Assembly: GCA_000004695.1 (NCBI GenBank)
Contig: CM000154.2
Coordinates: forward strand, 4,352,001 to 4,416,000
Reading direction: 5' to 3'
Length of the DNA stretch: 64,000 bases
Source: Dictyostelium discoideum
Lineage: Eukaryota
The translations under genes were made by a program, and so were the position numbers. The notes beneath the pieces are model-generated. The model was not told where the DNA came from and searched no databases. It saw nothing but the letters and a program-made list of their open reading frames with translations. This document shows positions 4,438 through 18,357 of the stretch, piece by piece (the stretch's first letter is position 1; each line of letters begins with the position of its first letter).

Positions 4438-5592
4438 ATGATAACTATTTCAGAAGAATTAGAGAATTATTCTCTTTCAAAATTTTTTGAAAAATGTTAT
4501 TATTATTTATTTAAAAATTGGTCAACAACAACCACCACAACAACTGCAACTACAAAAACAAAATTAAATAAAAATAAAATTAGTAAAAAGAATGAAAAAA
4601 ATCATATTTCACATCAAACTCAATATATAAAAAATGACAATAATTCTTTAAATAATAGTAATAGTAACTGTTGTAATAGTAATAATAATGATAGTAATAA
4701 TAATATAAAATTAAAAAATGAAAAAGAAGAATTAATTAATAATAATAATAATGAAAAAAAAACAATTTATTCATTAGTTGGAATTGAAGAAGCACCAGAA
4801 CATTTAAAAAGAGAATTTATATTGAATGGATATAGGGTAGATTTTTCATATTTATTATGTTTTAAATCAGTGTTGATATTTGGACATAACGATTTCGCTA
4901 ATATACATAGTCATTTAATACCGGCATTGTTTTTTATGTATACATTGTGGGGAGTGTTGACAGGATCGAGTGGAGGTTATAACGATTATGCAACTTTTGA
5001 TAGCGGTGACAAGATAGTGTTCACCATATTCATTGGGGCAGCCATCACCACCTACATCCTGTCGTTCCTATATCATACGTTTGGGTGCCACTCATTATGT
5101 ACCTATTCGAAATTGTTGGTATGTGATTATTTGGGAATCATCCTATTGATAGGGTCTAGTTTTTTTCCACCACTTTATTATTCGTTCAAGGCGAATCATA
5201 TCGGGTTAATGATATTTTATATGGGTTCAATTACAATGTTGTGTTTGTTATTGGCAATCATGGTTTTAATACCATCGTTGGCCGATAAGAATACTCTAAG
5301 AAATACTTTATTCTGTTTAACGGCTTTGTTTGGTATTGTGCCTTCAATTCACACACTTTTCATTTACCCAGCCCAAGAGGTGTATTACTTTATATTCCGT
5401 TTGGTTTGTATGTTTTTAATTTATGGTGCTGGTTTATTAGTTTACATCTATAGAATTCCTGAAAGTTTAATACCTGGTTATTTCGATTCAATTGTAACAA
5501 GTCATTCAGTTTGGCATTTCTTTACTGCTTATGCTACTTTTTTTAGTTTAAATACTTATTTAGAATTATATAGTAAAATTTCAAATCTATAA
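4438..5592 (+). CDS. PAQR / hemolysin-III / AdipoR-like seven-transmembrane protein, 384 aa, with an Asn/Thr-rich N-terminal extension.
   Basis: Single ORF. PAQR signature motifs are present in the right order: NGYRVDF...HNDFANIHSHL (compare AdipoR HNETxNIWTHL), an S...H at the end of TM2 (LYHTFGCHS), and HxxxH in TM7 (TSHSVWHFFTAY). Seven hydrophobic segments can be read off the translation. Confidence 0.75.
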   Translation: MITISEELENYSLSKFFEKCYYYLFKNWSTTTTTTTATTKTKLNKNKISKKNEKNHISHQTQYIKNDNNSLNNSNSNCCNSNNNDSNNNIKLKNEKEELINNNNNEKKTIYSLVGIEEAPEHLKREFILNGYRVDFSYLLCFKSVLIFGHNDFANIHSHLIPALFFMYTLWGVLTGSSGGYNDYATFDSGDKIVFTIFIGAAITTYILSFLYHTFGCHSLCTYSKLLVCDYLGIILLIGSSFFPPLYYSFKANHIGLMIFYMGSITMLCLLLAIMVLIPSLADKNTLRNTLFCLTALFGIVPSIHTLFIYPAQEVYYFIFRLVCMFLIYGAGLLVYIYRIPESLIPGYFDSIVTSHSVWHFFTAYATFFSLNTYLELYSKISNL

Positions 5593-5684
5593 AATAAATA
5601 AATAAATATATAAAAATAAAAAATAAAAATAAATAAAAATAAATAAATAAATAAATAAATAATAATGTTCCTTATTTGGAAATA

Positions 5685-5724
<40 letters not shown>

Positions 5725-5774
5725 AAAACATAAAACTTTTTTTAAATATCTATAAAAGATTTAAGAAATTAATT

Positions 5775-5823
<49 letters not shown>

Positions 5824-6105
5824 AATTTACCATCTTAACTTCTTTTAATCAAAAAATAAAAAAAAACAACTTTTTTTTGGTAAATCTTGGAATTAGATAA
5901 ATAAAACAAATGTAGGGGGAACAAAAATCCTAAAATTTCAAAACTTAATTTTTTAAGAAGTATATATTTTTTTATTTATTTTAAATTGAATTTTTTTTTT
6001 TTTTTTTAGATTTTTTTTTTTTATTGACAATGACTTTATTTTTTTTTTTTTTTGTTTGCATTAAATTAATTTCCCACCACACACCCCGCACAATAAATTA
6101 TCACA

Positions 6106-8111
6106 ATGGATAATAATAATAATCCAAATAATAATAATCCAAATAATAATAATAATAATAATAATAATGATTATAATAAATGTCATTATCATCCGACTAA
6201 TGAAATAAATTTAATTTGTTTAGAAGCAGAGTGTAAATTAATGCCATGTTGTGTAGCTTGTATGTCAATTAGTGGGAAACATCATAGACATAGTTTTGAT
6301 TTAGTTAATAATTGTATTTCAAAAATTATTGATAATTTTAAAAAAATATATCCAAATATTTCAAAAAGAATTAATGATTATAAAGAATTATCAGAAAAAT
6401 CAAATTCGATTCATTCAAATTCTAAATTAGATTTTTATAAAAATATTGCTCTTAATGATAAAGTTTTTGCAAATTTAATTAATACTTTAAGTTCAATTCA
6501 AAGAAATATAAAAAATGAATTACAAACAAATCAAGATAAAAATTATGAACTAAATTCAAATGAATCTTTACTAATAACTAATAATAGTCAAATACTTTCA
6601 AATATTTTAAATAATGTCTCAATTGATCATTTGGATGATTCAATTAATAATGATAATAATGATAATATTAATTTAGTTAAATATTATCAACAATCTTTAG
6701 AAGTTTTAAATGATGAAATCATTGAAATTGATTATCAAAATTCTTTACTAACTTTCGATCTTCAACTAATTGAAGAATTAAAAGAAAATTTTAAAAAAAT
6801 TTATTCAATTAATCAATCAGATAATATTAATATTGAAGATGAAGAAGAAGAAGAGGATGAAAAATTTAAGATTGGAATTGATGAAAATGGCAATGGGTTT
6901 GTAAAGAGTATGTATGGTGTGTGTAATTTTAAAGAGAAGGGGGTGGATGATGATGATTATTAATATGAATTTTTTTTTATTTTTTATTATTTTAAAATTT
7001 AGATGAAAATAAAAAGTATTATATTTATTCAGAGAATAGTGAACAAGAAGATAAAGATTCAGTTGCATTTGGAGAAGATTGTGGTAATTTATTAAACATT
7101 AGATCAAATAGAGTATTGAAGAATGTAATGTTGTTAGATGGATTTAAAGAGAGTTTAGGAGTTGGTGTATTACCAGATAGTATTGAATATTTGGAGATAT
7201 GTGATATTAAAACACCTTTGGTGGTTGGATCAATACCATCAAGTGTAAGAACATTGGTATTAAATGATGGATTTAGTCAACCATTAGAACCTGGTATTAT
7301 ACCATCAAGTGTAAAAAGTTTAGATTTACATAATATTAAAAATCGATTAAATGTTGGTTCAATTCCAAGATCAGTTGAAAATTTGGTTTTAAATAATGGA
7401 TTTAATCAACCACTTTTAGTTGATGTAGTATCGTTAATATCAGATGGTGTAAAATTTTTAACATTACATAAAATTAAAAGCCAATTAAAGGTTGGCTCAA
7501 TTCCAAAAACAGTAAAGAAATTAAGTATTGGTGATGGATTTTCACAATATTTGGAAAGTGGAATTGTTCCAAATGGTGTAATTACATTATATATTAATAA
7601 TATTAAACAACAGTTACAAATTGGATCAATTCCAACTTCTGTAAAATTTGCAACTTTTGGTGAAGGATTTAGTCAATTGCTTTCACCTGGCATTATTCCA
7701 AAGGGTGTAATGATGTTGTTTTTCTATAACATTAAATGTCCATTGGTTATTGGTTCAATTCCAATTTCAGTTACATGGCTAACTTTTTATAATGGTTTCA
7801 ATCACTCAATATCACCTGGTATAATCAGTAAAGGTGTGGAAAGATTATTATTACATGATATTAAACAACCATTAGAAATGGGTTCAATACCAACAACAGT
7901 AACTCACATCGTACTTGAAGATGGATTCAAACAAGCACTAACACCAGGAATCATTCCAAATTCAATAAAAGAATTAACTTTAAAAAATGTAAATCTTCAA
8001 TTAGTTGAAGGTTCAATACCAAGACAAATTCCAAGAATTATTTTAAATAATTTTAATGAATCATTAGAAAATTGTAATTTAGATCAATCCGTAGAAATAA
8101 AAATAGAGTAG
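6106..8111 (+). CDS. Copy 1 of the B-box-like zinc finger / coiled-coil / FNIP-repeat gene. Two exons: 6106..6907 and 7003..8111. An alternative acceptor would start exon 2 at 7033.
   Basis: Exon 1 encodes [37 protein letters not shown] followed by a heptad-rich region. The donor is a|GTATGT at 6908, in phase 1. The acceptor is TTTAG at 7001-7002. Exon 2 encodes 13 or more FNIP repeats (GSIP..V..L.L.DGF[SN]Q.L.PGIIP). The frame is open across the splice. Confidence 0.65.
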
Positions 8112-8378: not shown

Positions 8379-8420
<42 letters not shown>

Positions 8421-8446
8421 AATCAATAACAAATAATATATTAAAA

Positions 8447-9181
8447 ATGAATAAAGATAATAACAATAACAAATGTTCATTTCATCCAAATAAAAATTTA
8501 GAACTTTTATGTTTTAATTGTAAATTTATTCCATGTTGTATGCACTGTATTTCTCAACATGGTGAACACCATGGTCATAAAACAAATTGTATAGATTCAA
8601 TTGAAACATCAAATATTCTCAAAATGATGAATTTATTTAAAAATGATATTATTCCAAAATTAAAAGAAATAGTTGAAAATGATAAACAAATAATCAATAA
8701 ATCTGAAAATATTTATAATGAAATTAATCAACAATATGAAAATAATAAAATTTTAGTAACAAACGAATTTAAAAAGTTTCATACATTAATTCAAATTAAT
8801 CAATTAGATATTGAAAATCAATTAAGAACAACATTTGATGAAAATACAATAATATATACTATTATTAATTCATCAATCAATAATAATAATAATTATAATA
8901 TTAATGATGATAATAATTATGGTATTAATATAGAATCAATAGGTAATAAATTAGATAATCTCAATGATACTCACTTACAATATTGTAATGAAAATCAAAT
9001 TTATAACTGGCTTGAGAATCAAGATATTTATCAATTATTTAAAAAATATCAACAATCAACCTTAATAGTTAATAATAAAAATAATATTGAAAATTTAAAT
9101 AAATTAAAAGAATATAATAATCAATCAATAGTATTTAAAATAATGAATGAAATTAAAAATAATTTAAAATTAATTTATTAA
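8447..9181 (+). pseudogene. Truncated 5' part of a B-box/FNIP paralog (copy 2a). It has the B-box and coiled coil only and ends prematurely after ...EYNNQSIVF.
   Basis: It is homologous to exon 1 of copies 4-6 ([51 protein letters not shown]...). It diverges and stops where intact copies continue for about 60 more codons. There is no intron and no FNIP exon. Transposon-like insert DNA follows. Confidence 0.6.
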
Positions 9182-9339
9182 ATTTTATGAAAAAATGAAA
9201 AGTTGGTGTAAATATTTTTATTTTTTTATTTTTTTATTTTTTTATTTTTTTATTTTTTTTTTTTTTTTATCCAGATTTTAATTTTTTATTTTTTATTCAT
9301 CCCTTTTTTATTATATTTTAGTTATTTTATTTAACAACA

Positions 9340-10200
9340 AACACTGTTCTTTTTCTTTTATTTCTTTAAGTTTATCTTTGTCTAATTCAATGCCAAAACC
9401 ATCATTATATGTTTCTTGAAGATCAGCTAACATACAGAGTATTGACGATTTTGTTTAAATGATCCAAATTTCCTCGGTATGTTGGAGTTATTTTAAAATG
9501 ATTAATTTTTAAAAAAAAAGTTTTCCACATACACACTATTGGAGCTTACAAAATTAGGTAAAGATATATCTAGAAAAAAAAATAATAAAATAATAAAAAA
9601 TAAAAAATACCAATAATATAATTATTTTAATAATAATAAAAAAAAAAAAAAATAAAAAAAATAAAAATAAAATAAAATTAATAACAAAGTATTAAAAGTA
9701 AGAGATTTGGTTATTTAAATAATTACCCAATATTGGAAAGCTATCATGTTTACGAATAATTTTACCATTATTATAGTATTGTGGCTCTATTTTGGTATTT
9801 TCTAGTATATATTTGATCATGAACGGAACCTGGGAATCCCTCAGGATGTAGTAACAATAATCTGTATGATCTAGTGCATACCTCACAATGAAATTTGACC
9901 ACATGACTTTACTTTTACCAGAATAATAATTTTTTTTTGGATTTGATGAGTGGGAGTTTCAATATCAATAGAGGTAGATTCAGCAGCAATCGCACGATAA
10001 AGCACATTAGATATAGGATGTTTTAAAAAGCCAACTGATTCAACAAGTTTATCTCTTTTCCATTATTTCCTTGCATACAACTCAAAGTGAATGGTTGACT
10101 ATAGTGATTTTGAAATGTTTTTGGACTAATACCAAAAGTAACACATATCTCATAAATTGGAAGATATTGTTTCCAATATAAGAGAGTCTAACACAAAAAA
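9340..10200 (-). mobile_element. Degenerate Tc1/mariner-like (DDT-type) DNA-transposon fragment. It is a transposase pseudogene with stops and frameshifts.
   Basis: Minus-strand conceptual translation gives a helix-turn-helix-like segment (WKQYLPIYEICVTFGISPKTFQNHYSQ) followed by KSKVMWSNFIVRYALDHTDYCYYILRDSQVP..GKIIRKHDSFPILGNY. This resembles the Tc1 HTH and the start of the DDE domain (..WSDESKF..). A+T is lower than in the flanks, and the reading frame is broken by several stops. Confidence 0.35.
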
Positions 10201-11091
10201 AAAAAAAAAAATAAATAATGTTATTAATTAATTCATTTTATTTTTTACATTTTTTATTTTTTTTTTCTGTTTATAATTTTTTTTTTTTTTTACTTTGTTT
10301 AATTTAGGACTTGGTGTAATTTTACAAAATTATTTAATTTAATTTAATTTAATTTAATTTAATTTAATTTAATTTTTTTTCATTTTTTTTGTAAAAAAAT
10401 AAAAATTTTCACACCAACTTTTCATTTTTACATAAAATTTTTTTTATTTTTTTTTTTATTTTTTTTATTTCTATTTCGAAAAATTATTAAGATGGTTAAA
10501 AAAATAAGAGTTATTATACCCTTTATGTTGGAAAAGGCTTATGAAGATATAAATAATAATGATTATATAAATAAAAAAAATATTTACGGGATTTGGGTAT
10601 ATAAAACAAATAATACAAAAAAAATGTATATTGAAACAAAATCAGAACAAGGTTCACTTCCTCTTCTAGTTCATTTACAAAATGAACATTTATCGTCTAG
10701 AAAAGTCGAGTTATGGCTTGTTGAAAATAAAATTTATATACCAAAGTTAAGAGAAAAATATTTATATTTTTTAAAATGCAAAAAATGGTAAGATAAATTT
10801 ATTTATTTATTAAAATAATAATATATTAATATTTGTTATAATAAGTCAAAAAAGAAAAGATAAAAGAAATAAAAAAAAAAACCAAATTAAAGAAAAAGAA
10901 ATTTACATTAAAGTTGAAGATAATAAAGAAATTAGCGAAAACGAACGTGATTTAATTGAAGAAAATAAAAAAGAAGTTAGCGAAAATGAATGTGATTTAA
11001 TTGAAGAGGATGATGATGAAATATTATGTGAAGATGATGAAATACCATGTGGACAACCAATCTCATCGGAAGAAGATGAGCCAACTCGTTA

Positions 11092-11550
11092 TACTTTAAC
11101 ATTGATTTCAAAAACGATCAAATTGAAAGAAATAAAAATGACAATGGTACAAATAAAAAAGAAAAATTAAAAATTGAAATTGATGAAAATAAATTTAAAT
11201 TTATAATGAGTAAGTGTAAATAAAAATTTAATAATTATTATTATTTTATATTAATATTATAATATATGTGTATATATTTATATATATATATATTATAAAT
11301 AGATGATAATAAAAAATATTATATATATTCAAAGAATAGTAAATTTTCAGATTATCAAGATAAAGATTCAATTGCATTTGGAGAAGATTGTGGTAGTTTA
11401 TTAAAATTTAAATTAAAAACAAATATAAAGAGGGTTATGTTATTAGATGGATTTAAAGAAAGTTTAGAACCAGGTGTATTACCAAATGGTATTGTACATT
11501 TAGAAATGAACTGGTATAAAAAAAGTTTTTGAGGGAAAAAAAAAAAGGAG

Positions 11551-11581
<31 letters not shown>

Positions 11582-12232
11582 AAAAAAAAAAAAATAAATT
11601 AATCCACATTTTTAGTAATTTTATAAAGAGTAAAAAAAAAATTTAATTTTCCTTTTTTTTAAAAAATAAATCCACTACTTTTGTGTGTAAACAAACTAAA
11701 ATGGCTTCTTAAGAATTTATTTTTTCCCCTTTTTAGTTTTTTTTTTATACCTGAATCTGGAAAATTAAAAATTCATAATTTTGAAATTATTATAAAATAA
11801 TGTTTAAAAAAAAGGGGTAATGGTGAAAAAATTAATAAAAAAATTACGATTAAAAAAATTATTTTAAATGATTTTCCAGAAGAATCATTAAAAGTTTGTA
11901 AACTAAATAAATCTATAGAGATAAAAATTTTTAAATAAAATAAAACAAAAAACTATTATATAAACAAAAAAATAGAAATAAATAAATTAATTTTCATTTG
12001 TAAAATTGGATTTAGTCTTGATTGGTTTAAAAATTTGATAATATTATACCATATGTTTTGTCATTGGAATTTTTTTAAAAGAATAAGTTTGATAAGAAGA
12101 AAATATATGTTAGGTTTTCTTTGAAGGTAATTAATGATCATCAAACCTTTCATTTTCAGTATTGATGAAGTGAAATTAGGAATTGGATACATTTTATAGT
12201 TTTTTTTTTTTTTAATTTCATATGAATTTTAC

Positions 12233-12263
<31 letters not shown>

Positions 12264-12975
12264 AAAAATTGATTGAATTTGTATACCATTTGAACCTAAA
12301 AGATGGATTCTCTCAAACATTAAAGCCAGGTGTTATTCCAAAAACTATTAGAATTGTAACATTACACCAAATAACAAAACCATTAGTAATTGGATCAATA
12401 CCAAATACAGTCTTAAGAATAGAATTTCATAAAGGCTTTAACCAATTCCTTACTCCAGGTATTATATCAGAAGGTGTTAAATCATTAGAATTTTAATGAT
12501 TTAACAGTTTTAAGAATACAATTTCATAAAGGATTTAACCAATTACTTACAGCTGGTATTATACCAGAAGGTGTTAAATCATTAGAATTCCACCAAGTTA
12601 AATACTTATTGATTGTCGGTTCAATTCCTAACTCGATTTATTTATTATGTTTACTGGATGGCTTTAATCAAATAATATCACCAGGCATAATTACTAATGG
12701 AGTGTGCGAGTTAGGTTTGGGAGAAATTAAACAACCATTATTTGTGAATTCAATACCTAATTCCGTCACCAAATTTAATATCATTAATGGATTTTATCAC
12801 TAACGCCTGGAATCATTTCAAATTCAATAAAGAAATTAACTCTATGTACTGTAAATATATGAAATTAGTTGAAGGGTCAATTCCATAAAATTATTTTATA
12901 TGGTAATGTTGAACCATCATCTTTAGATGTTTGTAAATTAGATAGATATGTACAAATAATAAAAAATAATTTATA
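11092..12975 (+). pseudogene. 3' part of a B-box/FNIP paralog (copy 2b/3). It carries the end of exon 1 (..[18 protein letters not shown]), the intron, and a FNIP exon broken by stops, frameshifts and a local duplication.
   Basis: The donor a|GTAAGT is at about 11210 and the acceptor at about 11330. The FNIP frame ([25 protein letters not shown]) runs into a stop at about 11530. Further FNIP repeat fragments lie in three different frames between 12269 and 12960. Confidence 0.6.
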
Positions 12976-13187
12976 ATAATAGTAGAATCTTTGTAAATAA
13001 TAAAGGATCAAAACAAAAAAATAAAAATAAAAATAAATAAATAAATTAAATAAATATATAATTTGGTTCATCAATTTTATCAAATATTCTATTAATTTAA
13101 TTTGAATTTGTTTTTTTTATTTTTTTTATTTATTTATTTTTATATTTATTATTTAACTATTTAATTAATTTTATATTTTCTTTTGTT

Positions 13188-13655: not shown

Positions 13656-15557
13656 ATGAATAATGATTTAATATTAGATAATAACAATAACAATAAGAAA
13701 TGCACACTTCATAGAAATAAAATTTTAGAACTTTTATGTTTAGATTGTAAATTTATTCCATGTTGTACTCAGTGTTTTTCCAAGATGGTCAACACCATGG
13801 TCATAAAACAAATTGTATGGATTCAAAAGCAACATCAGATATTCTCAAAATGGTGAATTTATTTAAAAATGATATTATTCCAAAATTAAAAGAAATAGTT
13901 GAAAATAATAAACAAATAATTAATGAATCTGACAATATTTATAATGAAATTAAACAACAATATGAAATTAATAAAAATTTGGTAATAGATGAATTCAATA
14001 AATTTCATAAAATACTTCAAATTATTCAATTAGATATTCTAAAGCAATTAGAAACAACATTTGATGAAAATACATTAGTAAATACTATTATTAATTCATC
14101 AATCAAAAATAATGATAGTTATGGTATTACTATGGAATCAATGAGTAATGAAATAGATAATCTCAAGCATACTCACTTACAATATTGTGATGAAAATCAA
14201 ATATATAACTGGCTTGAAAATGAAGAAATTTATCAATTAATTAAAAAATATCAACAATCATCATTAATAGTAAATAATAAAAATTATATTGGTAGTTTAA
14301 ATATATTAAAAGAATATAATAATCAATCAATACTATTCAATAATTAAATAATTGATGATATTAAAAATAATTTAAAATTAATTTATGAGTTTGATAACAA
14401 TAAAAACAACCAAAATAAAAACAATAATCGTATTAATTATAATAAAAATGAAAAATTAAAAATTGAAATTGATGAAAATAATTTTAAATTTATAAAGAGA
14501 AAGTAAGAATTTAAATTATAAATAAAATTTAAATTATTATTAATATATATCAATATATATTATAAATAGATGATAATGAAAAATATTATATATATTCAAA
14601 GAATAGTGAATTTTCAAATCATAAAGATAAAGAGTCAATTGCATTTGGAGAAGATTGTGGTAGTTTATTAAAATTTCAATCAAAAACAAATTTAAAGTTA
14701 TGTTATTGGATGAATTTAAAGAAAAATTAGAACCGGGTGTATTACCAAATGGTATAAAATATTTGGAAATAGGAGATATTATAACACTATTAGTAGTTGG
14801 ATCGATACCACCTGGTATCATTCCTTCTTATCCACCAAATGAAGGTCATTGGTTTAAATAATTTTCATTTCCATTGTTCTTAGGTGTAAGATTCCTAACA
14901 TTACATAAAATTAAAAGTGAAGTAAACATTGGATCAATTCCAGTGTCAGTATCGCGTTTGAATCTAAAAGATGGGTTCTCTCAAACATTACAGCCAGGTG
15001 TTATTCCAAAAACTGTTAAAACTGTAATATTACAGGAAATAACAAAACCATTAATAATTGGATCAATACCAAATACAGTTTTTACAATAGAATTTCATAA
15101 AGGCTTTAACCAATTACTTACAGCAGGTATTATACCAGAAGGTGTTTATTCATTGGAATTCCACCAAGTTAAGGACTTATTGATTGTCGGTTCAATTCCT
15201 AACTCGATTTATTCATTATTTTTAAAGGAAGGCTTTGATCAAAAAATATCACCAGGTATAATTACCAATGGAGTGGGCCTATTACATTTAGGAGAAATTA
15301 AACAACCATTATTAGTGAATTCAATACCAAACTCTGTCACCAACTTGTATATCACTAAAGGATTTAATCAATCACTAACACCTGGAATCATTCCAAATTC
15401 AATAAAGGAATTAACATTGGGTACTGACAACATACAATTAGTTGAAGGATCAATTCCAAAAACAATTCAAAAAATTATTATAAGTGGAGATATAGAACCA
15501 TCATTCTTAAATGTCTGTAAATTAGATAAATCTATACAAATAGATAGCAATTATTAA
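13656..15557 (+). pseudogene. B-box/FNIP paralog (copy 4) with a 1-nt deletion in the B-box (about 13780), a premature stop at 14345, and a frameshifted 5' end of the FNIP exon.
   Basis: The track ORFs 13656..13856 and 13760..14347 are the same gene in two frames. Intact copies read tgtatttctaaagatggtgaa where this copy reads tgtttttccaagatggtcaa. The donor FIKRK|GTAAGA is kept. After the acceptor the exon-2 frame is lost (..[14 protein letters not shown] is out of frame). Only 14874..15557 stays open. Confidence 0.6.
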
Positions 15558-16030: not shown

Positions 16031-16519
16031 TTATCTTAAAATTGCTCCTGATCGACACTCAAAATTAAAAGGTTCGATGATCAATAATTACCTTAATTGA
16101 AAAATTAACCCAATTGATTCAAAACCAATATTATCTTCTTATTTAATTCTTATAAAGTTAGTAAAGATAGACCCACATGAATATAAGACAATTCCAATGA
16201 CATTTGGGGATGGATGTATTTTATAATTGTTTATTTTTTTAATTTCACATTTCATTTTAGAAATAAAAAAAAAAAAAAATAAAATAAAATTAAAAAATTG
16301 GGATTAGATTTAAAATCTCAATTTTTCCAATTAAAATTTTAAAAAAAAAAAAAAAATAAAAAAAAAAAAAAATTGTATTTTTATTTTTTGATTTTTTTAA
16401 AATACTCGTGCAACACTATAACAACTCATTATACTATTAATAATACAATAACAAAAAAAAAAAGAAGAAAAAAAAAAACTTCTCACACCCCACTTTTTTT
16501 TACTTTATTAATATTAAAA

Positions 16520-16916
16520 ATGAATAAAGATATAATATTAGATAATAATAATAACAATAACAAATGTACACTTCATACAAATAAAAAACTAAAACTTTTA
16601 TGTTTAGAATGTAAATTTATTCCATGTTGTATTCAATGTATTTCTAAAGATGGCGAACACCATGGTCATAAAACAAATTGTATAGATTCAATGGAAATAT
16701 CAAATATTCTCAAAATGATGAATTTATTTAAAAATGATATCATTCCAAAAATAAAACAAACAGTTGAAAATGATAAACAAAAAATCAATGAATACTTCAA
16801 ATTCTTCATTATTTAATATGATATCGAAAGGCAATTAGAAACAACATTTGATCAAAATACATTAATATATACTATCATTAATTCATCAATCAAAAATAAT
16901 AATCAAAATAATAAGG

Positions 16917-16979
<63 letters not shown>

Positions 16980-18357
16980 GCAATATTAATAATGATAATA
17001 ATGATAATGATAATTGTTATTATGGTATTAATATAAAATCAATAAGTAATAAATTAGATAATCCAATGATAATCACTTACAAAATTGTGATGAAAATCAA
17101 ATTTATAACTGGCTTGAAAATGAAGAAATTTATCAATTAATTAAAAAATATCAACAATCATCATTATGAGTTTAATAATAACAACAACCAAAATAAAAAT
17201 GTTACTATTGTAGAAAACAATAATAGTATAAAAATAAAAAATTAAAGATTGAAATTGATGAAAATAATTTTAAATTTATAAAGAGTAAGTGTTAAAATTA
17301 CAAATAAAAGTGTAGTTTTATTATTATTATTTATTAACATAATAATAATTTTATAAATGTGATTATAGGAAATATTATATTCAGAGAATAGTGAATTTTC
17401 ATTTTATAAAGATAAAGATGCAATTGCATTTGGAGAAGATTGTGGTAGTTTATTAAAATTTAAAGAGAGTTATGATAATTTTAATTTAACCAGTGTTATG
17501 TTATTAGATGGATTTAAAGAAAGTTTAGAACCAGGTGTAGTACCATATGGTATTTATAATATGGAAATAGGTGATATTAAAACACCATTAGTAGTTGGAT
17601 CAATACCATCAACCGTTTCAAGTTTAACATTACATGATGGATTTAATCAATCATTAGAACCTGTTATTATTCCTTCTTATCCAAAAAATAATGGACTCAA
17701 GCCATATTATTGATATTTTCATCCAGTGGATGTGTAAGATACTTAGAATTACATAATATTAAAAGTGAACTTAAAATTGGATCAATTCCAGGGTCAGTAT
17801 GCCAATTGACATTAAAAGATGGATTCTCTCAAATATTAAAACCAGGTGTTATTCCAAAAACTGTTGGGATTGTTAGAATAACAAAACCATTAGTAATGGG
17901 ATCAATACCAAATACAGTTTTAACAATAGAATTTGATAAAGGCTTTAACCAATTACTTACAGCAGGTATTATACCAGAAGGTGTTATCGGATTAAGATTC
18001 CACCAAGTTAAGGACTTATTGATTGTCGGTTCAATTCCAAAATCGATTTATTCATTATTTTTCAAAGATGGCTTTAATCAAATATTATCACCAGGTATAA
18101 TTACTGATGGAGTGTGTGAGATAATTTTGGGAGAAATTAAACAACCATTATTAGTGAATTCAATACCGAATTCTGTCACAAAATTGCATATCATTAATGG
18201 ATTTAATCAATCACTAACACCAGGAGTCATTCCAAATTCAATAAAGGAATTAACTTTAGGTAGTGTAAAAACACAATTAGTTGAAGGATCAATACCAAAA
18301 ACAATTCAAAAAATTATTTTAAAAGGAAATATTGAACCATCATATTTTTTTTTTTGA
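16520..18357 (+). pseudogene. B-box/FNIP paralog (copy 5) with an internal deletion of about 100 bp plus frameshifts in exon 1 and a frameshift in the FNIP exon.
   Basis: Exon 1 stops at 16816 after KINEYFKFFII. The downstream frame resumes with ..IERQLETTFDQNTL. About 40 codons that are present in copy 6 are missing. The FNIP exon is split between the track ORFs 17498..17713 and 17710..18357. Confidence 0.6.

Follow-up and report, generated by a model that had tools for sequence, protein, structure and literature searches.

Within a tandem array of B-box/FNIP-repeat genes on Dictyostelium discoideum chromosome 5, the first exon of one gene is interrupted near its end and sequence of the same family picks up again only some 1.9 kb further on. 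The question raised by this locus is whether the flanking pieces are the halves of a single gene and, if so, what came between them and in which order. All positions refer to the window, i.e. the whole 64 000-nucleotide stretch that was analysed (contig CM000154.2, positions 4,352,001–4,416,000 of the forward strand). According to the original prediction, the second and third copies of the array looked like one ancestral gene, split by an insert of about 1.9 kb with a Tc1/mariner-like element remnant and unrelated acidic debris. The split and the size of the insert were upheld; the equation of the two copies with one gene and the nature of the insert required revision.

The 5′ part of the split gene, termed unit I, was located at 8447–9178 (plus strand) from its open reading frame, by alignment to paralogues and by a zf-B_box match, which was weak (E = 3.6e-4, under the Pfam cut-off). 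The frame 8447–9181 consists of 244 codons and contains no interruption, although it had been taken for broken; it ends at a TAA (9179–9181) that was created by the insertion junction. In tblastn it was matched by residues 11–255 of the roughly 300 alignable residues of exon 1 of copy 6, and it thus represents about 85% of exon 1 rather than two-thirds. Over 8447–9178, copies 4 and 6 are 84.9% and 81.1% identical to it, respectively, and at the protein level exon 1 of unit I is 71% identical to that of copy 6. When intact B-box/FNIP paralogues were compared, homology was found to stop at 9178 and to resume at about 11093–11122. The end of exon 1 and the intron were found where they had been placed, at about 11092. 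The 3′ end of exon 1 occupies 11093–11209 (plus strand; alignment to copies 4, 5 and 6), residues 271–300 of copy-6 exon 1 matching 11122–11211 (tblastn). It is followed by the 93 nt family intron (11210–11302, plus strand), read directly from the sequence with donor GTAAGT at 11210–11215 and acceptor AG at 11301–11302 and sharing homology with the corresponding stretch of copies 4, 6, 7 and 8. The FNIP exon, which had been thought to follow as such, is present only as a head (11303–11508, plus strand), in frame and free of stops and matched by residues 2–64 of copy-6 exon 2 at 81% identity (tblastn). Unit I thereby conforms to the family layout of a B-box exon, one intron and an FNIP-repeat exon; in L003, array genes nearby were assigned FNIP (PF05725).

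The join 9178|11093 is almost seamless, with scarcely any of exon 1 missing relative to the paralogues, and unit I is therefore one gene that has been cut by the entry of some 1.9 kb of foreign DNA into exon 1. Copies 4 and 6 are the closest paralogues on both sides of the insert, with a similar ranking; in terms of the family frame there is a one-base shift between the two halves. The structure of the split locus, which lies downstream of a gene of the HlyIII family (4438–5592), is also present in a second D. discoideum assembly (L003, 99.9% identity). A search for an empty-site allele or an orthologue yielded none in L008 (a paralogous array, 77–87% identity), in L003 and L009, which are one assembly, or among Logan contigs, which were too short, and the pre-insertion sequence was therefore reconstructed from paralogues that are 81–85% identical over the segments concerned.

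The left part of the insert (9180–10440, minus strand, 1,261 bp) was identified from its terminal inverted repeats (TIRs) and from full-length relatives as a defective, internally deleted non-autonomous DNA transposon. The left TIR (9180–9228, plus strand), which in the orientation of the transposase is the 3′ end of the element, starts with AAATTTTATGAAAAAATGAAAAGTTGGTGT; the right TIR (10392–10440, minus strand) is the 5′ end. The inverted-repeat arms extend over 80 nt at 81% complementarity; each TIR is about 48 nt long. A 27 nt TIR core occurs twice in the window versus zero times expected, and it is kept in six termini from three loci, including L001 and L002. Of the TIRs and TA duplications that were to be sought at the insert boundaries, TIRs were found, though they bound only 9180–10440, and TA duplications were not: the triplets flanking the TIRs are ATT and TTT. 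The ATT (9177–9179) is a putative left copy of a target-site duplication (TSD), occupying the same position as the flanks in L001 (ATT/ATT) and L002 (AAT/AAT), the only two intact pairs available; the corresponding triplet beyond the right TIR (10441–10443) is TTT, and the duplication is not intact in the window copy. The two TIRs differ at three positions. The element is 83% identical to an element of ∼3.8 kb in L002 and 76–78% identical to one of ∼4.1 kb in L001, and it is without the second gene and transposase exon 1 of these relatives.

On the minus strand, the predicted helix–turn–helix (HTH)-like segment followed by a degenerate DDE remnant was confirmed using the intact relative P0001 as a tblastn query (E = 1e-25 and 8e-20). 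The remnant (9332–10178) corresponds to residues 57–326 of the 327 residues of P0001, with 58% identity; it is spread over three reading frames, includes an AT-rich intron at ∼9557–9700 and carries the HTH-like part at its N-terminus. The elevated GC content noted for the insert is real and modest (0.23 at 9501–10000 compared with about 0.17–0.18 on either side). P0001 matched DDE_Tnp_4 (PF13359) with 79.4 bits (E = 2.9e-22, profile positions 2–157 of 158), and translated pieces of the window matched the same family (E = 5.5e-5) and, weakly, HTH_Tnp_4 (E = 0.025); the DDE_Tnp_4 score for the window fell just short of the cut-off (23.3 versus 24.8 bits) and was obtained with a hand-stitched peptide. 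In the same Pfam comparisons of the window pieces, P0001 and P0002, none of the Tc1/mariner or pogo families, such as DDE_3, Transposase_1, DDE_1 and HTH_Tnp_Tc3/Tc5, was matched at E ≤ 1. The Tc1/mariner or DDT assignment was accordingly not supported; judged by its transposase type, the 9180–10440 element is of the PIF/Harbinger superfamily type. In the remnant, in which catalytic residues were assigned by motif pattern rather than from a structure, the first catalytic Asp is replaced by Glu (AADST reads AAEST), the codon for the second is gone (the GDRAY codons are lost in a 12 bp deletion) and at least four frame changes and stops are present; the transposase is predicted to be catalytically dead. 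A D. discoideum copy in L015, 92.6% identical to the window element, shares its 15 bp, 12 bp, ∼75 bp and 3 bp deletions and a 1 nt frameshift, and hence the defects of the window element probably predate its insertion. The second gene of the full-length relatives is divergently oriented and encodes 358 amino acids in L001 and 291 in L002; its three exons in L001 produced no credible Pfam match, to Myb/SANT or otherwise, which is weak evidence of absence in a fast-evolving AT-rich genome.

The remainder of the insert (10441–11092, plus strand) is a fragment, truncated at both ends, of a second, transposon-like repeat unit (here called X) and was recognized from L004, L005 and the related proteins P0010, P0011 and P0012. 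It consists of a T-rich promoter-like tract, an ATG at 10492, an exon to 10787, an intron (10788–10845) and an acidic exon that extends to the gene junction, and it is 88% identical to L004 7811–8440 and 92% identical to L005 5797–6382. The GC-rich subterminal repeats of X were not found in 10441–11092, nor was the other terminus of X found within L004. Harbinger sequence does not adjoin X in L004 or L005, the only X copies fetched, and X is of independent origin from the Harbinger element. The acidic open-reading-frame material at 10500–11100 is therefore unrelated to the transposase, as had been proposed, and is the 5′ fragment of a repeated unit rather than debris. Pfam searches with P0010, P0012 and the neighbouring L004 open reading frames gave no credible match, and a Ulp/C48-like motif suspected in P0010 lacked Pfam support. 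Because of its divergent orientation the 10492 reading frame was also considered as the second (Myb-like) gene of a Harbinger element and rejected, being dissimilar to the second gene in L001 and part of a separate repeated unit. The insert is thus composite: a single element of 1.9 kb was rejected because the TIRs bound only 9180–10440 and because L001 and L002 contain nothing like 10441–11092 (tblastn and blastn). The X fragment adjoins the right TIR exactly, with zero bases between, TTAT microhomology is present at one of its junctions, and the insert ends on the right in …CCAACTCGTTAT, which is unlike the TIR.

Downstream of the insert the FNIP exon of unit I breaks off at 11508, and in place of its middle there are 309 bp (11509–11817) for which, low-complexity matches aside, neither the window nor any fetched locus gave a counterpart except L003, which is the same locus in the second assembly. 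A C-terminal tail of an FNIP exon with its stop codon (..KKIILNDFPEESLKVCKLNKSIEIKIFK followed by the stop) then lies at 11818–11943 (plus strand) and was recognized by its match to the tail of copy 1 (11854–11928 against 8033–8104, 77% identity, E = 3e-10); it is likely to be the end of unit I. Intergenic-like spacer follows (11944–12269), in which 12171–12268 is 81% identical to 16198–16296 upstream of copy 5. The next family sequence, unit II (12270–12976, plus strand), is a 5′-deleted FNIP exon running from the middle to the tail with frame breaks; it is matched by residues 182–254 and 226–322 of copy-6 exon 2 (tblastn), is 82–89% identical to copies 4 and 6 and contains a local duplication (12407–12492 and 12504–12589). 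Because it lies beyond an FNIP tail with a stop and beyond intergenic-like DNA, this piece more likely derives from a further array unit, and for this reason the second and third copies probably do not add up to exactly one gene. The AX4 gene model DDB_G0290607 joins the X fragment to the FNIP remnants, taking its start codon from X and using 11818–11943 as its last exon; this hypothetical gene is pieced together from a transposon-like fragment and bits of pseudogene. An Rfam scan of 8400–13000 returned SNORD56 as its sole match, which was sub-threshold and was taken as chance.

Taken together, these features are probably explained by an array unit whose exon 1 was disrupted, and the gene thereby inactivated, by a composite 1.9 kb insert (9179–11092) made up of a dead Harbinger copy and an X fragment. 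The Harbinger part of the insert derives from a PIF/Harbinger-type cut-and-paste transposon of ∼4 kb. A full-length relative may have moved the defective copy in trans into a T-AWT-A-like site, with duplication of ATT. The order that we prefer, to which we give an even chance, is that the Harbinger copy came first and X was captured later by break repair: a break at the right end of the element, perhaps during attempted excision, would have been end-joined with an X fragment as filler, and the right TSD copy would have been removed in the course of this repair. Downstream, what was left of the split gene would have degenerated through a large deletion, and the following unit of the array would have lost its 5′ half. 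Divergence from the nearest sampled copy, 8% for X and, for the Harbinger element, 17% (full-length) or 7% (L015), does not discriminate between the orders.

The reverse order, which we regard as possible though on the unlikely side, would have X captured in exon 1 first by an unrelated break repair and the Harbinger copy inserted subsequently into the gene/X junction, with the right ATT changed to TTT. The left ATT can be constructed from the TA of the gene and one T of the T-tract of X, such a T-rich target is near the T-AWT-A pattern that the other copies show, and an element old enough for its TIRs to differ at three positions could plausibly carry a mutated duplication; yet the transposon would have had to hit within 0–2 bp of an existing junction, a substitution in the duplication is needed and the first break is left without a cause. 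Alternatively, the Harbinger copy and X might have arrived as one pre-formed piece, either through one-ended transposition of an aberrant kind or as a copy made from a donor locus with the element in the X promoter. That X lies directly against the TIR would then be expected, and the TTT that follows the TIR might represent a duplication at the donor site, inside the T-tract of X. We nevertheless consider this improbable: the right end of the insert does not resemble a TIR, neither fetched X copy (L004 or L005) has a Harbinger copy at the matching position and copying is not expected to end precisely at the outer base of the left TIR.

Two further readings were weighed. If copies 2 and 3 had been different array genes, of which the 5′ part of the former and the 3′ part of the latter came to lie together through unequal recombination or a deletion, with the foreign DNA there by chance, the one-base difference in register between the halves would be accommodated, and deletions are frequent nearby (the 11509–11817 gap and the missing 5′ half of the 12270–12976 unit). 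Against this, the breakpoints in exon 1 coincide to within a few bases, the left one falls exactly at the transposon terminus and both halves have identical closest paralogues, which makes such a fusion decidedly improbable. A single Tc1/mariner-like (DDT-type) remnant of ∼1.9 kb with unrelated acidic debris is scarcely credible. In its favour, the minus strand reads an HTH-like segment and then a DDE-type remnant, and pogo-like DDE_1 transposases do occur in Dictyostelium genomes, one in a gene neighbouring the element in L001. The matched families are, however, DDE_Tnp_4 and HTH_Tnp_4, with the remnant 58% identical to DDE_Tnp_4 proteins, TA duplications are absent and the TIRs bound 1,261 bp only, 10441–11092 being a separate repeated unit.

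Under the preferred order, with the Harbinger copy in place before X, a further step may be proposed tentatively, and we think it rather unlikely as a whole: that the defective Harbinger end was cut in trans, that the promoter and first exon of X were captured there and that a putative chimeric DDB_G0290607 transcript runs into the FNIP remnants. If true, this would be exon shuffling by failed excision, caught in the act. The locus is an ordinary transposon insertion into a pseudogenizing family member, and the general understanding of transposons or of the B-box/FNIP gene family is unchanged by it. Its value lies in the corrected class of the element (PIF/Harbinger, not Tc1/mariner), in a dated-looking case of the loss of a B-box/FNIP array member by transposon insertion and then deletions, and in the annotation of Dictyostelium repeats, to which it adds a Harbinger-type family whose autonomous members, ∼4 kb long, occur in related strains and species and whose defective derivatives occur in D. 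discoideum. This family, with T-AWT-A as its target, may be a component of the D. discoideum repeat catalogue that is misclassified or has no name of its own; the papers found on the D. discoideum DDT-A/B/S and thug-S/T families provided no sequences or transposase class onto which the element could be mapped.

Among known systems, the window element is most readily compared with PIF/Harbinger transposons (DDE_Tnp_4, PF13359; the HARBI1 lineage), with which it shares the transposase type, an HTH-like N-terminal segment, short TIRs and the occurrence of internally deleted non-autonomous derivatives. TTA/TAA is the triplet typically duplicated by these transposons, whereas the relatives described here duplicate an AWT triplet within T-AWT-A. 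The full-length relatives in L001 and L002 are also alike in possessing a second gene and 3 bp duplications made up of A/T only; the typical PIF/Harbinger target-site duplication is 2–3 bp (PMC3627910). Their second open reading frame differs from the Myb/SANT-like one of autonomous copies in that it has no Myb/SANT match, and the window copy differs in being, by its motifs, catalytically dead and in the absence of the second open reading frame. Tc1/mariner and pogo elements resemble it in the succession of an HTH and a DDE-type catalytic domain within a TIR-bounded cut-and-paste element, but the window element has a DDE_Tnp_4 transposase and no TA duplication. Tdd-4 and Tdd-5 (Ginger2) inhabit the same host, D. 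discoideum, and are TIR elements of ∼3.8 kb, near the length of the L001 and L002 relatives; Tdd elements have integrase-like transposases, TIRs of 260–297 bp and 5 bp duplications (PMC2836005), in contrast to the DDE_Tnp_4 transposase, TIRs of ∼48 bp and 3 bp duplications of the present family. The doubly truncated piece of a repeat between a transposon end and host DNA is reminiscent of filler-DNA capture at double-strand breaks, the repair mechanism proposed here. Lastly, in supplying the start codon of the annotated chimeric DDB_G0290607, the X fragment resembles the exonized transposable-element fragments of transposon-driven chimeric gene models.

The window is extremely AT-rich, and the genes of its tandem array consist of two exons, a B-box exon and an FNIP-repeat exon, separated by a short intron. 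In the split gene (unit I) the 5' part is an uninterrupted ORF of 244 codons (8447–9181) with a weak B-box match, equivalent at the protein level to residues 11–255 of the ∼300 residues of copy 6. This ORF can be aligned with its paralogues as far as base 9178 (copy 4 at 84.9% identity, copy 6 at 81.1%), and its stop codon (TAA, 9179–9181) spans the boundary to the foreign DNA; the frame, described as broken in the original prediction, contains no internal break and ends at this boundary. In the paralogue alignment, family homology to the end of exon 1 was traced back to ∼11093–11122; it is followed by the intron (donor GTAAGT, 11210–11215; acceptor AG, 11301–11302) and by 206 bp of the FNIP exon in frame. 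Joining 9178 to 11093 yields paralogue sequence with almost nothing lost, and both flanks of the insert are most similar to copies 4 and 6. Both observations argue for one gene split by about 1.9 kb of foreign DNA, and this claim was accepted. Because the two halves differ in phase by one base inside a poorly conserved Asn-rich stretch, the pre-insertion sequence is not exactly reconstructible from the paralogues. Protein matches were 100% identical to D. discoideum proteins, including the AX4 chromosome-5 model DDB_G0290607. Two assemblies share all of the structure described, since between 8400 and 13000 the corresponding locus of a second D. discoideum assembly (L003) has 99.9% identity. 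Array copies 4 and 5 (13760–15557 and 16373–18357) look damaged, with exon-1 ORFs that are broken or start mid-domain and shortened FNIP ORFs; several units of the array may therefore be pseudogenes.

The left part of the insert (part A, 9180–10440) is bounded by an inverted repeat in which 9149–9228 pairs with 10392–10471; the window contains two occurrences of its 27-nt core, with none expected. A transposase remnant lies on the minus strand between the arms, spread over three frames. A hand-stitched peptide matched DDE_Tnp_4 in Pfam with an E value of 5.5e-5, just under the cut-off, and peptide pieces matched HTH_Tnp_4 (E = 0.025); no Tc1/mariner family was matched in Pfam among the window transposase pieces. 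The stitched peptide is 54–58% identical to Dictyostelium proteins of 326–327 aa, which score 70–79 bits on DDE_Tnp_4. As an unbiased check on the stitching, tblastn with the intact relative P0001 aligned residues 57–326 over 10178–9332 (E = 1e-25 and 8e-20); the alignment changes frame at least four times. These matches identify the transposase as one of PIF/Harbinger type, not of the Tc1/mariner type originally named. Of the terminal inverted repeats (TIRs) and TA duplications anticipated for the insert, the former were found; the flanking triplets are ATT and TTT. Just inside the right TIR, where full-length relatives have coding sequence, lies an (AATTT)n microsatellite with some nine units (10329–10375). 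An Rfam match to SNORD56 at 9393–9462 (+), within the transposase remnant but on its opposite strand, falls below the gathering score (25.9 against 36 bits, E = 0.036) and is probably due to chance.

P0001 is encoded in locus L001 (D. cf. discoideum) and a second relative, P0003, in L002 (D. discoideum). Both loci carry the termini of part A, spaced 3.8–4.1 kb apart and enclosing a three-exon transposase gene and a divergently oriented second gene. Six termini can be aligned inward from AAATTTTATG and diverge outward. The flanking triplets (ATT/ATT in L001, AAT/AAT in L002), each inside T-AWT-A, indicate a 3 bp target duplication in these relatives; typical Harbinger duplications are of 2–3 bp (PMC3627910). 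The full-length copies lie in transposon-rich neighbourhoods, since they are adjoined by a pogo-like DDE_1 transposase gene (L001, 166–1506) and by hAT dimerisation and ZBED-type transposase genes (L002, 1–1169).

In the window copy the second gene and the first exon of the transposase have been lost, and low-complexity DNA and the rest of intron 1 adjoin the right TIR. The first motif Asp is replaced by Glu, a 12 bp deletion takes out the GDRAY codons and a deletion of ∼75 bp lies between TAATTTTGT direct repeats. A fragment on another contig (L015), 92.6% identical to the window copy, shares the 12 bp, ∼75 bp, 15 bp and 3 bp deletions and a 1 nt frameshift, which suggests that the defects are probably older than the insertion; this would reconcile the battered transposase with the intact adjoining 244-codon host ORF. 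The window copy belongs to a defective subfamily that was presumably mobilised in trans. The L015 fragment (5051–5849) is a second D. discoideum copy of this subfamily, cut off at both ends; a segmental duplication of the window was ruled out because its flanks are not homologous. The gene model P0006 includes part of it along with a weak MyTH4 region, and a B-box/FNIP gene lies ∼1.6 kb downstream.

The right part of the insert (fragment X, 10441–11092) comprises a T-rich tract, an ATG at 10492, an exon ending at 10787, a GT–AG intron (10788–10845) and an acidic exon. After splicing, its product resembles members of a small D. discoideum family, in which P0010 (358 aa) is the full-length member. 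The DNA can be aligned with loci L004 (88% identity) and L005 (92%) from the T-rich tract on; upstream, both loci have GC-rich GCCGGGCAAT subterminal repeats that the window lacks. X in L004 also extends further downstream, and the homology of the insert to L004 stops at ...CCAACT-CGTTAT (11092). Fragment X thus derives from another, transposon-like repeated unit and has been truncated at both ends, and the single insertion originally proposed, correct in size, is over-simple in anatomy. In L004 a palindromic TTTTAAAGGTAATTTTAAAGG-type repeat cluster at 8930–9540, with inverted arms 87–97% complementary, interrupts the full-length X gene; the cluster resembles a small foldback or MITE-like insertion.

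The left junction of part A is a precise terminus with ATT. On the right the triplet after the TIR is TTT, and X directly adjoins the TIR with no other bases between them; the last four bases of X (TTAT) equal the TTAT of the gene at 9175–9178. We favour an order in which a Harbinger copy would have entered the gene first and its right end would later have been broken and repaired with X as filler, the right duplicate being deleted, because this explains why X abuts the TIR. Capture of X first, followed by transposition onto the gene/X junction and mutation of the right duplicate, is less favoured. That Harbinger and X arrived as one pre-formed unit is unlikely because the right end of the insert is unlike the TIR and the X copies in L004 and L005 have no Harbinger neighbour. 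As the loci and assemblies compared yielded neither an empty-site allele nor an intermediate one, the Harbinger-first order is one that we infer.

Beyond the insert, the match to the FNIP exon in unit I ends at 11508, and the 309 bp replacing the middle of this exon (11509–11817) matched, low-complexity sequence aside, nothing in the window or the fetched loci except L003. Bases 11854–11928 match the tail of the copy 1 FNIP exon (77% identity, E = 3e-10), within a tail ending with a stop at 11943; 12171–12268 matches DNA upstream of copy 5. A second FNIP remnant (12270–12976) runs from exon middle to tail; its frame is broken in places, and it contains a local duplication, 12407–12492 and 12504–12589 forming a near-tandem pair (97 bp offset, 90.7% identical) more similar than is usual for neighbouring FNIP repeats. 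The most economical reading is of two array units with two deletions, so that the former copy 3 comprises the rest of the split gene and a further 5'-deleted unit. The merging of copies 2 and 3 into one gene therefore holds for the exon-1 end and the FNIP head and probably for the tail to 11943, but probably not for 12270–12976. DDB_G0290607 (P0009, 241 aa; 10625–11940, discontinuous) begins inside X, reads the exon-1 tail out of frame and continues into the FNIP head and then the FNIP tail (11818–11940). The model is chimeric, built from remnants unrelated to each other; the same DNA is annotated in the second assembly as a 162-aa protein (P0008) and a 203-aa FNIP model.

The original prediction was thus correct in its observation, wrong in its family label and over-simple in its anatomy, and the biology of this transposon-split gene is ordinary. 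No report linking D. discoideum with Harbinger elements was found in the partial literature covered. Identity with Tdd-4/5, which are Ginger2 elements with 5 bp duplications and TIRs of 260–297 bp (PMC2836005), was ruled out by TIR length and by duplication size, which is 3 bp in the part A family. The Myb-like partner, a hallmark of the PIF/Harbinger superfamily, was not detected for this family, the second gene of the full-length relatives having no Myb/SANT match, and the window copy is dead. In its transposase, its TIRs and the 3 bp duplications seen in full-length relatives, however, the family resembles PIF/Harbinger transposons, and on these sequence features the part A element is assigned to them and would work as they do.
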